Origin: Felis catus
Lineage: Eukaryota
Length of the DNA stretch: 64,000 bases
Reading direction: 5' to 3'
Assembly (NCBI RefSeq): GCF_018350175.1
Contig: NC_058368.1
Span: 83,454,001-83,518,000 of the forward strand
How positions within the stretch are numbered: position 1 is the first letter of the stretch; each line of letters starts with the position of its first letter. Of this stretch, positions 1 through 6,040 are shown piece by piece. The notes under the pieces are model-generated. The model did not search any database, was not told where the DNA came from, and was given only the letters and a program-made list of their open reading frames with translations. The position numbers were made by a program, and so were the translations under genes.

Positions 1-187
1 TCAAGTCTGGGATTGTGATGCCTTCTGCTTTGGTTTTCTTTTTGAACATCACTTTGGCTATTCAGGGTCTTTTCTGGTTCCATATAAATTTTAGGATTAT
101 TTGTTTTATCTCTGTGAAGAATGCTCATGTTGTTTTGATAGGGATTGCATTGAATATGTAGATTGCTTTGGGTAGTATCGCCATTTT
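1..187 (-). mobile_element. L1 ORF2 fragment, left part of the inverted 5' segment of a 5'-inverted L1 that is interrupted by the ERV retrocopy
   Basis: Reverse complement encodes ORF2-like ...KAEGITIPDL. The sequence continues seamlessly at 4001 across the TSD. Confidence 0.9.
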
Positions 188-202
188 ATTTTATTTTTTT
201 TT

Positions 203-592
203 CAATAAATTGGGGTTTTACTTCCCACTTCCATTCCCCATCATTGGAGGTAACACAACTCCAGGCTGCGCAATAGAGGGTTTCAAACCCTCCACATGTG
301 TGCCTCATCGCCCCCGTCCTAAATCCTGGACATGCATAAAATCCATTTCTACTTATTGATACCCTCCTTTGCAGTTGCCTCCATTTACCTCCTTCCATTT
401 CTTCTAATGGACTAACTTTTTCTAAATTAAAATATAAATCTGGCCACCAGGTATTTAATGGGGCAGTTCCTAGGGTTTTGTTGTAGATTTCATGAGTCTC
501 TAAGTAATTTCCCATGTCAAATTATAGGGGGTGTGCAGGTTTGGATTTACAGACAGAATTTGCAGAACAATCAAGAGGAGGGCAAGTACCAT
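203..592 (-). pseudogene. env: Truncated gamma-type env (signal peptide plus N-terminal SU/receptor-binding region), frameshifted near codon 30
   Basis: MVLALLLIVLQILSVNPNLHTPYNLTWEIT, then in another frame TWWPDLYF...FYACPG...TCGG...YCAAWSCVTSNDGEWKW (MLV/PERV-like SU motifs). Ends at the poly(A) tail. Confidence 0.85.
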
Positions 593-594
593 AG

Positions 595-2352
595 TTACGG
601 CTCAGTCCGTTGGCGGCGTAGGGTCAATTTTAAAGGATTGTCCTTAGTCCGATCAACAGTCCAGGTTGCCTTTGAAGGTCCAATGAGGTCTGAGAATGGG
701 TCCACTGGTTTGGCGTGGGTGTAATGGATCCAGGAGGTGATTCCGTCTACTTTGATGGCCGTAGGCATTGTCAGGATGACCTGGAAGGGTCCTTTCCACC
801 TGGGTTCCAGAGTCTCCTGCCGATGACATTTGATGGGGACCCAATCCCCCGGTCAGAATTGAGGAATAGGCGGGGGTCCAGTCTCATAAAGTTCTTTTAA
901 CTTGGGCCATACATCTTCATGGACCCTCTGCAAGGCTTGTAGGGAGAACAAGAGTTCAAGACCATTATCATTCTCAGTTTTGACAAGGTCATCTTTTAGG
1001 TAAGGGATGATGGGGGGTGGTTTACCATGCATTATTTCATAGGGTGTGAGTCTCAGTTTGTATGGGGAGTTACGCACCCTGAACAGAGTGTAGGGGAGAA
1101 GGACTGCTCAATTAGTACCAGTCTCCATGGTCAATTTGGTTAGGGTCTCTTTTAATGTTCTATTCATTCTCTCTACCTGTCCTGAGCTTTGGGGTCGGAA
1201 TGCACAATGTAATTTCCAATCAGCCCCAAGTATGGAAGCCAGTCCCTGACTTACCTTAGAGACGAATGCAGGTCCATTGTCTGACCCTATCATTACTGGA
1301 AAACCATACCTGGGCAGGATTTCTTCTAGGATCTTTTTGGCTACAATCTGTGCCGTTTCATTCTTGGTTGGAAAGGCTTCAGTCCATCCTGAAAAGGTAT
1401 CTACAAAAACTAGCAAATACTTATATCCATATTTTCCTGGTTTTACCTCAGTGAAATCTACTTCCCAATAGGTCCCCGGTCTGCTCCCTCTTTGTCTTAC
1501 CCCTGTTGTCTGAGGATTGCTACTTGCATTGTTGAGTTGGCACACTGTACATTTAGTGACTACTTGATCGACCTTATCAGAGACATTTCTGATTTTTAGT
1601 CCAGTCTGTCTCAGTAAGTCCAACATTCGCCGGGAACCTAAGTGGGTGCTGCGATGGATCCGCTCTAGAACTTGCCATCCTAGTTTATCTGGGAGTATAA
1701 TGCTGCTTTTGGAGTCTCTCCACCAGCCATCTTTGATCCGGGTCATAGGAAGTTTACGCATCCATTGAATGTCGCTTTCTGAATACTCAGGGCTGGGGGG
1801 CAATTCCCGGGGTCCGGGGTCTGGCAGCTGTAGGGTCAGCAATTGTGCTGGGGGCCAAGCTATGTTTTTTTTTTTTTTTTTTTTTTTTTGCAGTCTGATC
1901 GGCCAAATTGTTGCCCCGGGAAACTGGGTTGGTTGTCTTCTGGTGTCCTGGGCAATGCACAATCGCTAGCTTTTTGGGTTCCCATAAGGCTGCTAGCAGG
2001 GCTAGAATCTCTTCCTTATTTTTGATGTCTTTCCCTTCAGCTGTGAGGAGCCCCCGTTCTCTGTATATCACCCCATATACATGAGCGGTGGCAAAGGCAT
2101 ATCGGCTATCAGTGTACACGGTTAGCTTTCGGTCTCTTCCTAATTTTAGGGCCTGGGTTAAGGCTATTAGTTCAGCCTCGTGGGCCGAGGTTGGGGGGGG
2201 GGGGTTGGGCTTCTGCCCAAACCACCTTGGTTTCTGAAGTTACGGCCGCCCCCGCATACCTTTGTCCCTGGTGAAGGAAGCTGCTTCCATCGGTGAACCA
2301 GATGGCATCCGCATCCGATAATGGTTGGTCCTGCAAGTCCTCCAGGACCCCT
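595..2352 (-). pseudogene. pol: pol 3' part: RNase H plus integrase, disrupted
   Basis: [27 protein letters not shown] and HCPGHQK (RNase H). HHCC zinc finger, WEVDFTE/SDNGPAF/ERMNRTLKE (DDE) and EPRWKGPF (IN C-terminus). Stop at 1108-1110; frameshifts near 855, at T25 (1865-1889) and at G12 (2193-2204). Confidence 0.93.
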
Positions 2353-2499
2353 TTGCCCTGTCCGGCGGCTCCTGCCAAGGCCCAGTCGCGCGCGGGGCTG
2401 CGCCCCGGGGATGCGTGCCGCAGCAGCTGCCCGCGGGACGCCACGTTGTCACCCGCTGCTGCGCGAGCTGCGGCCCCGCCCCCGCTCCCCGCTGGCGAT
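2353..2499. other. GC/CpG-rich segment of non-viral appearance replacing the RT domain
   Basis: About 147 bp with about 22 CpG (hand count) and a GC box ccccgcccc, lying between protease end QIHFQPG and RNase H start (GV)LEDLQDQPL. No RT motif is present. Confidence 0.75.
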
Positions 2500-2814
2500 C
2501 CCCCGGTTGGAAATGAATTTGGGCCCCCATTTTGGTAAGCAAATCCCTCCCCAACAGGGGGCAGGGGCTGTCGGGAATGACCAGGAAGGAGCGGGTTACC
2601 TTCCCAGTTCTTAGGTCCACAGTCCTCTGAGTTGTCCAGGGGTACATCTTTATTCCAGTGGCCCCTTGTACCCAGGATGATTTTTCAGATACTTTTCTAT
2701 GGGGCTTGACCAGAACTGAGTGATGTGCCCGGTATCAAGTAGGAACTGGACCGGGGTCCCCTACACTTGCAATGTTACCCTAGGTTCGGGGAGGGGATCC
2801 GAACCCCGTCCTCC
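2500..2814 (-). pseudogene. pro: Gammaretroviral protease, disrupted
   Basis: [28 protein letters not shown], then a frameshift, then [26 protein letters not shown]. Confidence 0.9.
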
Positions 2815-2817
2815 CTA
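2790..2817 (-). promoter_or_regulatory. gag-pol UAG readthrough signal (start of the pseudoknot)
   Basis: UAG GGAGGACG GGGUUCGG AUCCCCUCC CCGAACCU resembles the MLV UAG, 8-nt spacer and stem arrangement. Confidence 0.75.
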
Positions 2818-3771
2818 TTCTGTATCTTGGGTAAACAGTATGGGGGCTATTTTAGGCTGCCATTGTCCTTGGCCTTGTTTCTTCTTGGGGCATTCTCGTA
2901 TCCAATGGCCTTTTTCTTTACAATAGGCACATTGATCTTTATCTAAGTGCTGCCTGGGAGGGCGTGTTGTTTGAGTGCCTTCTGGGGGTGGCTGTTCTTT
3001 CTGGACTATAGCAGCCAGGACTTTAGTCATTTTCTCTGTGGCCTTGATCTGTCTCTCTTCTGGGGCGTCCCTGTTGTTGTAGACCCATTGCGCTATATGG
3101 AGCAGATCCTGGATCTGTTTACCTTCTAAATCCTCTAGACTTTGGAGTTTTATTTTAATGTCAGGAGCTGCTTGGTTTACAAAGGACATAACAACAGCAG
3201 CCTGGTTCTCAGGGACTTCTGGATTCATGGGGGTAAACTGTCTAAAGGCTTCCATTAATCTAAGTAAGCAGCTGGACTCTGCCTTTCCCTGTACGACCGA
3301 ATATACCTTAGCCAAATTGGTGGGCTTGTGAGCTGCAGCCCGGAGACCCACCATCAGAGTCTGGTGATAAATGAGTAGCCTTCCCCTACCTTCTGCAATG
3401 TTGTAGTCCCATTCGTCCTGTGGAGGTCTGGTTAGGGGGAAAGTCGCATTAATGAGGCCAGGGTTAGATGTCGGCTGACCGTCGTCTCCGGGAACCAGCT
3501 TTCTTGCTTCTAATTGGATCCTCTCTCGCTCCTCTGTAGTGAACAGGATGCGGAGGAGCTGCTGACAGTCGTCCCAGGTGGGCTTAGGGGTTATAGGGAA
3601 GCAAAAAGTTCCTTCGGTTGGCCATCCAATGCTGAAGGTTGGCCATTCAGAGCGGCAGAGGGTTATTAATTTTCCCCTCCGGATGTCTAGACTCAAATTC
3701 TGTCCTCTGGTTCTAACATCCCTGAAGTTAGCAATGAGGAGAGAAAGGGGAGTGCTTTGAGATTGGCCCAT
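2815..3771 (-). CDS. gag: Open 318-aa internally deleted Gag (63 aa of MA fused to CA lacking its N-terminus, plus NC)
   Basis: MGQSQSTPLSL myristoylation start; WPTF.IGWP.EGTF (MA); PTWDDCQQLL..LFT.EER (CA); CAYCKEKGHWIREC (CCHC zinc knuckle). No stop until the UAG at 2815. Expression is unknown. Confidence 0.8.
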   Translation of the reverse strand: MGQSQSTPLSLLIANFRDVRTRGQNLSLDIRRGKLITLCRSEWPTFSIGWPTEGTFCFPITPKPTWDDCQQLLRILFTTEERERIQLEARKLVPGDDGQPTSNPGLINATFPLTRPPQDEWDYNIAEGRGRLLIYHQTLMVGLRAAAHKPTNLAKVYSVVQGKAESSCLLRLMEAFRQFTPMNPEVPENQAAVVMSFVNQAAPDIKIKLQSLEDLEGKQIQDLLHIAQWVYNNRDAPEERQIKATEKMTKVLAAIVQKEQPPPEGTQTTRPPRQHLDKDQCAYCKEKGHWIRECPKKKQGQGQWQPKIAPILFTQDTE

Positions 3772-3830
3772 CTGTATCCGATCGGTCTCAGGGACGACCT
3801 GTTGACTTGGGGTCTGGTGGGCTTGGGGGG

Positions 3831-3848
3831 ATCCCGGACAAGTGCCCA
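3831..3848 (-). promoter_or_regulatory. Primer binding site, tRNA-Pro type
   Basis: TGGGCACTTGTCCGGGAT matches the tRNA-Pro PBS TGGGGGCTCGTCCGGGAT at 15/18 and follows U5 ...CA-TT. Confidence 0.8.
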
Positions 3849-3850
3849 AA

Positions 3851-3985
3851 TGATATGCCCCAATTCGAGAGACCCCCCGAAAACAAACTGCCAGAGTCCA
3901 GAGTCAAAGCCAAGCGGCAAGGGTCGTTTATTGCAGGTTCGAACCCAGTCCTCAGCGCACTCATTGCCGGTGACGCTAAGAGGCC
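3851..3985 (-). promoter_or_regulatory. R-U5 portion of the 5' LTR (no U3)
   Basis: 135 nt containing AATAAA (3927-3932) and ending ...GGGGCATATCA before the PBS. Directly abuts the TSD. Confidence 0.8.
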
Positions 3986-4000
3986 TAGTATCGACATTTT

Positions 4001-4612
4001 AACAATATTTGTTCTTCCTACCCAGGAGCATGAAATCTTTTCCCTTTTTTTGTGTCTTCTTCAATTTCTGTCATAAGCTTTCTATAGTTTTCAGCATATA
4101 GATTTTTCACCTCTTTGGTTAGATTTATTCCTAGGTATTTTATGGTTTTTGGTGCAACTGTAAATGGGATTGATTCCTTGATTTCTCTTTCTGTTGCTTC
4201 ATTGTTGGTGTATAGGATTGCAACCGATTTCTGTGCGTTGATTTTATATCCTGCAACTTTGCTGAATTCATGAATCAATTCTAGCAGTTTTTTGGTGGAA
4301 TCATTTGGGTTTTCCATATAGAGTATCATGTCATCTGAGAAGAGTGAAAGTTTGACCTCCTCATGGCTGATTTGGATGCCTTTTACTTCTTCCTATTGTC
4401 TGATTGCAGAGGGTAAGACTTCCAATACTATGTTGAATAACAGTGGTGAGAGTGGACATCCCTGTCTTGTTTCTGACCTTAGGGGGAAAGCTCTCAGTTT
4501 TTCCCCATTGAGGATGATATTAGCATTGGGTTGTTCATATGTGGCTTTTATGATCTCAAAGTATGCTCCTTCTATCCCTACTTTTTTGAGGGTTTTTATC
4601 AATAAAGGATGC
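4001..4612 (-). mobile_element. L1 ORF2 (RT region), inverted 5' segment
   Basis: ORFs ..[16 protein letters not shown].. and [18 protein letters not shown].. Confidence 0.92.
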
Positions 4613-6040
4613 TGTGTTCATCAAGACATTATGGTACTGGCACAAGAACAGACACTCAGATCAATGGAACAGAATAGAGAACCCAGAAATGGACCCACAA
4701 ATGTATGGGCAACTAATCTTTGACAAAGCAGGAAAGAATATCTAATGGAATAAAGACAGTCTCTTCTGAAAGTGGTGCTGGGAAAACTGGACACCAGCAT
4801 GCGGAAGAATGAACCTGGACCACTTTCTTACACCATACACAAAAATAAACTCAAAATGGATGAAAGACCTCAATGTAAGACAGGAAGCCATCAAAATCCT
4901 CAAGGAGAAGCAGGCAAAAACCTCTTTGATCTTGGCCGCAGCACCTTCTTACTCAACACGTCTCTGGAGGCAAGGGAAACAAAAGCAAAAATGAACTACT
5001 GGGATCTCATCAAAATAAAAGGCTTATGTGCAGTGAAGGAAACAATCAGCAAAACTAAAAGGCAACCAACAGAATGGGAGAAGATATTTGCAAACGACAT
5101 ATTAGATAAAAGGGTTAGTATCCAAAATCTATAAAAAACTTATCAAACTCAACACCCAAAAAACAAATAATCCAGTGAAGAAATGGGCAAAAGACATGAA
5201 GAAACACTTCTACAAAGACATCCAGATGGCCAACTGACACATGAAAAAATGCTCAACGTCACTCATCATCAGGGAAATACAAATCAAAACCATAATGAGA
5301 TACCACCTCACACCTGTCAGAATGGCTAACATTAACAACTCAGGCAACAACAGATGTTGGCATGGATGCGGAGAAAGAGAATCTCTTTTACATTGTTGGT
5401 GGGAACACAAGCTGGTGCAGCCACTCTGGAAAACAGTATGGAGGTTCCTCAAAAACTACAAATAGAACTACTCTACGACCCAGCAATTGCACTAGTTAAT
5501 ATTTATCTAAGGGATACAGGTGTGCTATTTTGAAGGGACACATTCAGCCCCAGGTTTATAGCAGCACTATCAACAATAGCCAAAGTATGGAAAGAGCCCA
5601 AATGTCCATCGAAGGATGAATGGATAAAGATGTGATATATATATATATATATATATATTCCTCGGCAATCAAAAAGAATGAAATCTTGCCATTTGCAACT
5701 ACCAGGATGGAACTGGAGGGCATTATGCGAAGTGAAATTAGTCACAGAAAGATAAATATCATATGAATTCACTCATATGAGGACTTTAAGAGACAAAACA
5801 GATGAACGTAAGAAAAGGGAAACAAAAATAATTTAAAAACAGGGAGAGGGACAAAACAAAGAGACTCATAAATATGGAGAACAAACTGAGGGTTATGGGA
5901 GGGTTGTGGAAGGGGGAATGGGCTAAATGGGTAAGGGGCACTAACGAATCTACTCCTGAAATCATTGTTGCACTATATGCTAACTAATTTGGATGTCAGT
6001 TAAAAAAAATAAAGAAATACAAGTTAGAATAAAAAAAAGA
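4613..6040 (+). mobile_element. L1 3' segment (ORF2 C-terminus, 3' UTR, A tail)
   Basis: [17 protein letters not shown] and [18 protein letters not shown] motifs; A-rich tail at about 6001-6040. Confidence 0.92.

Follow-up and report, generated by a model that had tools for sequence, protein, structure and literature searches.

The window (the whole 64,000-nucleotide stretch of Felis catus DNA that was analysed) contains a 3.8-kb gammaretrovirus-like ERV element that spans positions 3985 to 200 on the minus strand. We compared this element with two full-length relatives (L033 and L034) and one short relative (L031). Its features are given below in the order in which the minus strand is read, with a caret marking each joint or cut.

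3986..4000, minus strand: 5' target-site duplication AAAATGTCGATACTA, preceded by GTT (GTT^AAAA, of the L1 endonuclease type)
3779..3985, minus strand: exon 1, with R, U5, a degenerate primer-binding site and leader sequence as far as the major splice donor
3778..3779, minus strand: putative leader exon-exon joint CCGATCG^GATACAG, from comparison with relatives
2815..3771, minus strand: gag frame of 319 codons, with MA 1-63, CA from PTWDD, the NC zinc knuckle and the natural gag stop
3582..3583, minus strand: putative intra-gag exon-exon joint AAG^CCC (MA K63^CA PTWDD), from the sequence and genome comparison
2344..2501, minus strand: 158 nt of GC-rich filler in place of about 1.55 kb of RT, not GT..AG, inherited from the source lineage
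200..2343, minus strand: RNase H, integrase and the 5' part of env, ending ..CAATTTATTGAAA
217..222, minus strand: AGTAAA hexamer, a likely variant poly(A) signal by its sequence and spacing, 17 nt before the copy end
188..199, minus strand: non-templated A-rich tail AAAAAATAAAAT, where relatives read TGTCC..
173..187, minus strand: 3' target-site duplication AAAATGGCGATACTA, after which the same L1 ORF2 fragment continues

The gag frame is uninterrupted from the ATG at 3771 to the stop at 2815 and is translated across the joint as ..FCFPITPK^PTWDDCQQLL... The minus-strand letters at this point are ..TTTTGCTTCCCTATAACCCCTAAG^CCCACCTGGGACGACTGTCAGCAG.. (with a longer left flank, ..GGAACTTTTTGCTTCCCTATAACCCCTAAG), with the last base of AAG at 3583 and the first of CCC at 3582. 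These letters and the open frame confirm the in-frame MA-to-CA junction at 3583/3582 from which the original prediction set out. Beyond the joint, CA runs unspliced via ..DYNIAEGRGRL.. into NC and protease.

Pfam matches were obtained to Gag_MA (residues 3-58 of the window protein, profile positions 1-56 of 113), to Gag_p30 (residues 61-233, profile positions 29-200 of 201) and to zf-CCHC. Because of the MA^CA joint, the Pfam search of the 319-codon frame gave no p12 match; relatives of the window copy have the full set of MA, p12, CA and NC zinc knuckle. The C-terminal half of MA, p12 and the N-terminus of CA are therefore gone, in frame. A cat Gag model (P0036) shows that the PPPY motif falls within the segment that is absent from the window copy, so the predicted loss of the remainder of MA, of p12 with its late domain and of the CA N-terminus is borne out both by Pfam and by the position of PPPY. 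The product of the spliced mRNA would be a 319-residue Gag that lacks the C-terminal half of MA, p12 with PPPY and about 55 N-terminal residues of CA. This mini-Gag, made of MA 1-63, CA minus its first ~55 residues, and NC, begins with MGQ, a likely myristoylation signal.

Ends and flanks of the element

The copy begins at 3985 with GGCCTCTTAGCG, about 28 nt past the position of the parental TATAAA, the distance expected of the cap site at which R begins. In place of U3, the sequence ahead of this start is L1 ORF2. TATAAA is present upstream of R in 21 of the 22 other leader-bearing copies. The primer-binding site is one that we take to be of the tRNA-Pro type. At its other end, at window position 200, the copy stops inside env (..AAGTAAAACCCCAATTTATTGAAA), and relatives continue with TGTCC... 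The AGTAAA hexamer that precedes this end presumably acted as a variant poly(A) signal. The tail is short, 12 nt including two T, and cleavage was in env, behind AGTAAA and not AATAAA.

The target-site duplication is 15 bp long, and its 5' and 3' copies are identical at 14 of 15 positions. The insertion target reads ..ATATTGTT^AAAATG.., a TT^AAAA-type endonuclease site. When aligned to an intact L1 copy that the window carries at 48600-48521, the two flank ends land on the same positions; this L1 copy has the 15-mer once, between the flanks, with GTC ahead of it (GTT in the target). The original prediction treated the element as a provirus. This did not hold, as both the 5' U3 and the 3' LTR are absent and the element carries the marks of an mRNA copy made by L1.

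Segments missing at the two joints

We searched the genome from which the window comes with a query of 221 bases that spans the gag joint, and scored 40 of 118 candidates. Among these 40, the only single-piece match was the window's own locus; the others were split in two (query bases 1-118 and 117-221), with the parts about 640-770 bases apart. Fifteen split-match loci were extracted so that the segment ends could be read (two of these, L014 and L015, are identical duplicates). All 15 are unspliced relatives from the same genome with 635-665 extra bases at the position of the joint. In 14 of 15 the extra segment follows ..GCTAAG and starts with GTGAAG, GTGAAA or GTGGAA; in L009 the BLAST alignment ended early, and GTGAAA was found a few bases further on, after GCTAGG. 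The 3' end is ..TTCACCCACCAG (..CACCAG) in all 15, directly before CCCACCTGG or, more generally, CCCAC(C/T)TGGGA. Thus the codons that had been expected around the breakpoints, K^V-K and H-Q^P, occur in relatives as AAG^GTGAAG or AAG^GTGAAA and as CACCAG^CCC, and inspection of the end dinucleotides, as had been proposed, gave a GT start and an AG end in 15/15 relatives. A 2-base AG overlap at the joint allows three placements, one of which is GT..AG.

A second segment is missing from the leader. The window reads CCGATCG^GATACAGATGG at 3779/3778, and relatives read ..CCGATCG^GTAAGTGAGCC.. and then, about 357 bases later, ..TTTTAATCCTTTCCTCCACCTCCAG^GATACAGATGGGC. This segment runs from the major splice donor to a strong acceptor, made up of a pyrimidine tract and CAG, that stops 8 nt short of the gag ATG. 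It is 345-449 nt long in relatives, starts with GTAAGT, GTGAGT or GTAGGT, and is removed exactly in the window copy. The GT start together with the pyrimidine tract and CAG end was seen in 16/16 rows (15 distinct places), and the GT after the major donor is retained in all 22 other leader-bearing copies (23 in the genome). Here too there is a 2-nt overlap (GG), with three placements, one of which gives GT..AG.

The sites at the gag joint are of a quality comparable to sites that are seen in RNA. The MA donor AAG^GTGAAG has 7/9 matches to the donor consensus, equal to the RNA-seen donors AAG^GTAGGG and GAG^GTAACT. Sites as good as this donor number 16 in 7754 nt, with 4 in gag. The CA acceptor has 11/16 pyrimidines, as compared with 9 and 11 in RNA-confirmed acceptors. 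On a full-length relative, GT and AG account for 3.9% and 7.1% of positions, so that about 0.8% of random deletions for which three placements are possible would have GT..AG ends by chance; the chance of hitting sites of this quality is about 6e-5 per deletion.

The window element has three gaps, two of which are exact GT..AG and the third, in RT, is not. The LTR-flanked provirus at G000:C18:91914501-91924500 shares the filler at the RT gap (92% identity) and has lost neither the leader intron nor the MA donor. As it is shared with the C18 provirus, the RT gap is older than the copied RNA and a property of the source lineage. We considered the C18 provirus as the direct source and rejected it, since it has p12-CA and env deletions of its own that are absent from the window copy; it is at most a sister. 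Other gaps among copies of the family include 248 nt in p12-CA (the C18 copy) and 127 nt (a C2 copy), neither of which is GT..AG. L031 (C47:112328001-112338000) is LTR-flanked and has CA joined to the integrase/env region, a break that is GT..AG if one CpG-type change is allowed. L011 was considered as a second copy with a CA break of this type and was rejected, as its CA runs on.

Both joints are unique. The gag joint occurs once in the genome (up to 2 mismatches) and the leader joint once (up to 3 mismatches); a second match in the search for the gag joint (C16:85006781) is unrelated sequence. An LTR-flanked provirus with the same deletion had been named as the case that would speak for a deletion made by RT, and the genome contains none; the joint is present only in the window copy. 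Each joint's single genomic copy may be the record of one RNA molecule.

RNA reads and gene models of other felids

Among the sequencing runs listed as carrying this sequence, none is recorded as RNA; twenty contig runs contain 0.98-0.99 of the sampled words, and their assignment to RNA or DNA is a guess. One raw-read RNA run (X24; 1139 reads, at least 90% likeness) and three contig runs were aligned to L033:900-9000. Two joints with GT..AG ends were identified on L033: one from 2591 to 4208, in 6 reads and in contigs of two runs, and one from 4317 to 4915, in 2 reads and one contig. The donor of the first is AAG^GTAGGG, right after ..DYNTAE, which is where MLV has its SD' donor. It lies 193 nt downstream of the CA acceptor, and in this respect the prediction that the intra-gag splice is distinct from the env splice and from the SD'-type splice stands. 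The proposed check for junction reads was negative: the MA^CA joint was present in no read group or contig of the four runs, where raw reads cover gag only about 5-15 deep and rare forms are lost from contigs. The leader joint was likewise not found in these runs on L033, at the same raw depth of about 5-15 over gag. The absence of the joints from four runs is weak evidence against them.

Protein searches identified NCBI gene models, which were mapped on the full-length relative L033. Four models from other felids have the same MA^CA joint, ..GWPTEGTFCLPIIAK^PTWDD(C/N).., in which the MA side ends in LPIIAK:

cheetah, P0095, isoform X3: ..LPIIAK^PTWDD..
leopard cat, P0122: ..LPIIAK^PTWDD..
jaguar, P0003: ..LPIIAK^PTWDD.., 87% identical to the window protein
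jaguarundi, P0195: ..LPIIAK^PTWDD..

On L033, the MA exons stop at GCTAAG^gtgaag (1753) and CA restarts at 2401 (CCCACC). LPIIAK is what unspliced cat copies encode at this point and the window has FPITPK; these parental-type residues indicate that the four models are not orthologues of the window retrocopy. The tiger (P0136) and clouded leopard (P0219) models share this MA donor and join it to an acceptor that lies in p12. After ..DYNTAE, the next exon of P0122 starts at L033 4209, the acceptor side of the RNA-read joint from 2591 to 4208, so that at this point the models follow real RNA. In models from cat (P0160) and cheetah (P0095), the SD'-like donor is joined to the integrase C-terminus. 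The common N-terminus of P0122, P0195 and P0136 may reflect one orthologous locus. As unverified gene-model predictions, the felid models suggest independent use of the MA donor and the CA acceptor. The leader joint is absent from all the felid models that we found.

Origin, known counterparts and age of the copy

The start at the cap site, the A-rich tail, the duplication and the GT..AG gaps together make an mRNA retrocopy produced by L1 the most likely identity of the element. Our preferred reading is that the MA^CA junction is an exon-exon joint within such a retrocopy, the template having been a doubly spliced, early-polyadenylated ERV mRNA; we put its probability at roughly 0.88. What the sequences show directly is a 5' end at the cap site that lacks U3, an A-rich tail, a target-site duplication, flanks that continue one another, and GT..AG ends of both missing segments in relatives. 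From these we infer that splicing made both gaps and that L1 did the copying. The placement of both breakpoints on splice sites, and with it the intra-gag splice of the original prediction, is supported by the GT..AG ends, by the marks of a copied mRNA and by the four felid models.

The proposed sequence of events begins with a provirus of a subfamily in which RT had already been replaced by the 158-nt filler, and which would have been transcribed from the LTR cap site. Splicing would then have removed the leader intron of about 357 nt, with CG^GTAAGT as the major donor and ..CCACCTCCAG^G as the acceptor 8 nt ahead of the ATG, and also an in-frame intron of about 645 nt from AAG^GTGAAG, after MA residue 63, to ..CACCAG^CCC, before PTWDD. 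Early polyadenylation inside env may have followed, after which L1 endonuclease and reverse transcriptase would have put the RNA into an L1 ORF2 fragment at GTT^AAAA, with the 15-bp duplication as the result. The leader intron takes up nearly all of the sequence from the donor to gag, which is the part of the MLV leader that contains the packaging signal. By analogy, we infer that the leader intron takes out the packaging region; the spliced RNA would therefore be kept from particles, which fits its re-entry into the genome through L1 instead of by the viral route.

How regularly the splices are made is a separate matter. It is quite possible, although the odds fall somewhat short of even, that both are real but cryptic, having occurred a single time in a defective transcript that lacked RT, and do not define a regular isoform. 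There is one genomic record only, the joints are absent from the four RNA runs, and the source lineage was already defective. Such an event does not by itself account for the retention of donor and acceptor in 15/15 copies (although these letters are also codons), for the retention of the non-coding leader acceptor and its pyrimidine tract in 16/16 rows, or for the recurrence of the MA^CA joint in four felid models. This alternative concerns the frequency of splicing and not the identity of the junction, and it overlaps with the preferred reading of a spliced and retrocopied mRNA. We consider it unlikely that the products are a regular, conserved isoform, in which a mini-Gag with a likely myristoylation signal would have an accessory or interfering role like that of P50 and would be accompanied by a leader-spliced gag mRNA without the packaging region.

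Splicing could also have come earlier, if a spliced RNA was packaged and integrated virally and the unspliced transcript of the resulting deleted provirus was later copied by L1. SD' RNA of Friend MLV has been packaged, reverse-transcribed and integrated, according to the accessible part of PMC1936429, and L031, LTR-flanked and with CA joined to integrase/env, is GT..AG with one CpG-type change allowed. We nevertheless regard this route as very improbable: the window's genome contains no provirus with either joint, and the leader intron would cut out the region in which MLV has its packaging signal. Marginally less probable again would be chance DNA deletions or reverse-transcriptase template switches at microhomologies, without any splicing, which would fit the 2-nt overlaps at both joints and a family in which deletions are common (the RT gap, 248 nt in C18 and 127 nt in C2, none of them GT..AG), but which would have had to produce two exact GT..AG gaps out of three with consensus matches equal to those of RNA-confirmed sites (about 0.8% chance each), one of them at the major splice donor, in an element that carries the marks of a copied mRNA and with the same donor and acceptor joined in the models of four other felids.

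Retrocopies of ERV RNAs made by L1 are known from HERV-W, HERV-H and one rec-like spliced HML-2, as described in the available portions of PMC3590776 and PMC5537654. The processed pseudogenes of HERV-W start at R-U5 without U3, have a poly(A) tail and a TT/AAAA-type target, and are flanked by a duplication of 5-15 nt (PMC5537654, available portion); all four of these features are also present in the window copy. In the same portion of that source, the HERV-W copies, 135 in human, end in U3-R at the LTR poly(A) site, whereas the window copy ends in env. Unlike the HERV-W copies, the window copy is the sole one of its kind among 23 leader-bearing copies, and it would come from a doubly spliced RNA. 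Another counterpart is HERV-K(HML-2) 2q32.1, a rec-like ERV mRNA that was spliced and then retrotransposed in the L1 manner, leaving a duplication and a stretch of A (PMC3590776, available portion). As far as that account extends, it is betaretrovirus-like and uses the known env/rec splice sites, whereas the window copy is gammaretrovirus-like, lacks a leader intron and an in-frame intra-gag intron, and keeps gag-pol.

Alternative splicing from gag is known in MLV. The accessible part of PMC1936429 places the SD' donor after the first 110 capsid residues and describes a 4.4-kb RNA that is packaged and integrated. MLV SD'/SDARE/P50 likewise involves an alternative gag donor, the felid equivalent of which, AAG^GTAGGG after ..DYNTAE, was seen in RNA reads. 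As compared with MLV SD', the donor reported here is in MA and its acceptor is 193 nt upstream of the SD'-like donor, a site that is unspliced in the window copy. As compared with an SDARE-type provirus, the window copy is without complete LTRs, its CA donor is not joined to an env or integrase C-terminal acceptor, and it was apparently returned by L1 and not by packaging. In Akv MLV, a doubly spliced RNA includes an SA'/SD' gag exon of 235 or 180 bp (PMC1936429, accessible part), and the likeness to the window copy lies in an acceptor in CA upstream of SD' and in a gammaretroviral RNA that is doubly spliced. As far as that description goes, Akv joins its acceptor, 235 nt before SD', to the leader donor; in the window copy the distance to the SD'-like donor is 193 nt, and the partner of the CA acceptor is the MA donor, with the frame kept. 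On these lengths alone, the CA acceptor of the window copy would probably fall 42 nt downstream of its Akv counterpart. The leader donor, which in the Akv-type SA'/SD' exon is joined to the CA acceptor, is in the window copy joined to the acceptor 8 nt before the ATG.

Our literature search for a leader intron or a spliced gag mRNA found neither in the papers listed, although such a search is not proof of absence. The kind of object (a retrocopy of an ERV RNA) and the process (alternative splicing of gag) are known and, as far as the accessible parts of the sources go, these particular introns appear to be undescribed. Retrocopies freeze single RNA molecules, and the window copy would be a fossil of two splice events. 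If the leader splice is regular, there would be a gag mRNA without the region in which MLV has its packaging signal, which bears on the choice between translation and packaging of full-length RNA in simple retroviruses. If the gag splice is regular, a truncated Gag would join the few gammaretroviral accessory products (P50, glycoGag). The copy also points to an ERV transcript mobilised by L1 in a carnivore; among human ERV groups, L1 mobilisation is presented as particular to HERV-W in the available portion of PMC5537654. The present basis is one fossil and unverified gene models, and its value is that it offers a precise and cheap test of splice use by RT-PCR.

The age of the copy was estimated from a CA-NC tree of the window copy and 12 proviral copies. 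The tree is star-like, with a terminal branch of 0.027 for the window copy as compared with 0.007-0.058 for the others. Mismatches within LTR pairs number 9 in a 416-column alignment for C18 and 16 in 386 for L033. Taken together, the tree and the LTR divergence suggest that the retrocopy is as old as the family's spread and would thus date from its spreading period. If a substitution rate near 2e-9 per site per year applies, the age would be roughly ten million years, a rough figure.

We also considered co-option of the 319-codon gag frame and rejected it, because the frame is open only via offsetting losses of 2 nt and 4 nt, 19 nt apart (window 3278/3279 and 3259/3260). A 172-aa record, P0123, is identical to the window protein at 164 of 166 positions and has the same joint. 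Its frame shifts after ..QGKAKS, as would be expected if the 4-nt loss had occurred but not the 2-nt one, and it ends after ..AAYLD. The frame of P0123 and the offsetting slips indicate that the open frame of the window copy is not conserved. CA-NC is also open in the relatives L002 and L007, as judged from lists of their indels.

Joints within gag-pol and from the leader donor

Two GT..AG joints within gag-pol of L033, a full-length relative of the window copy in the same cat genome (G000:C27:7709501-7719500), were supported by RNA reads and contigs:

L033 2591-4208, GT..AG joint in gag-pol
L033 4317-4915, GT..AG joint in gag-pol

These joints bound an exon of ~110 nt in RT. The donor of the first joint (2591) is the counterpart in L033 of MLV SD', and in the cat (P0160) and cheetah (P0095) gene models this SD'-like donor is joined to the integrase C-terminus, an arrangement like that of MLV P50. 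The major leader donor is joined to an acceptor inside MA (..AACTTCAG/GGATGT; L033 ~1613) in the felid gene models P0122 (leopard cat), P0195 (jaguarundi) and P0136 (tiger), and the joint bypasses the gag ATG. As modelled, this is a predicted third use of the leader donor, beside env and the leader intron of the window copy.

Also present in the genome is a short copy with LTRs on its flanks (L031, G000:C47:112328001-112338000), in which CA (..GGAGACGAC) abuts the integrase/env region (AAGGGTCCATGAAG) at ~2499/2501. The ends of this joint are compatible with G/GTCAGC .. TTGCAG/, given one CpG-type G-to-A change, and this copy may represent spliced RNA that returned via the viral route.

Transcript ends and a block common to another family

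Poly(A) read ends were located at L033 1074 and 8838, the R/U5 border of both LTRs. They were also found at L033 7348, inside env, and thus early env polyadenylation occurs today, although this site lies at a different env position from the end of the retrocopy. About 50 RNA reads matched L033 only across a 40-nt block (2390-2429, the PTWDDCQQLL region) and were unlike it beyond the block on both sides. Another gammaretrovirus-like family, expressed at a higher level, has this block, and no other part, in common with L033.

Apparent inserted and duplicated segments

In the window copy, a GC-rich filler occupies the place of RT:

window 2344-2501, minus strand, 158-nt filler

The filler has 85-87% matches, in the opposite orientation, to a different, more distant ERV family, where the similar stretch is found ~125 nt upstream of a CA-like region. 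Matches in that family are:

L037, G000:C17:17816922
L038, C2:66808750
L039, C2:28840302
L040, C1:45458442
four further places on C37

The filler looks like a piece of the gag of another ERV, inserted backwards in the source lineage.

Two related copies are 100% identical across the 879-nt MA-to-CA segment compared:

L014, G000:C47:52067255-52070359
L015, G000:C47:51976527-51979631

Given this identity, their location ~90 kb apart and their opposite strands, a recent inverted segmental duplication is suggested.

Length changes at short repeats

A runs have grown at short A-rich sites in the window copy (25 A at 1865-1889, minus strand, where L033 has AAAAGA) and in CA of L002, L018 and L036 (16-33 A at an AAGAAAA site). 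The window copy also has a 2-nt loss (3278/3279) and a 4-nt loss (3259/3260), both on the minus strand in AG repeats and spaced 19 nt apart, which offset each other, and the window gag stays open. Because L004 carries the 2-nt loss without the 4-nt one, and L003, L017 and L018 carry the 4-nt loss without the 2-nt one, we conclude that both sites slip repeatedly.
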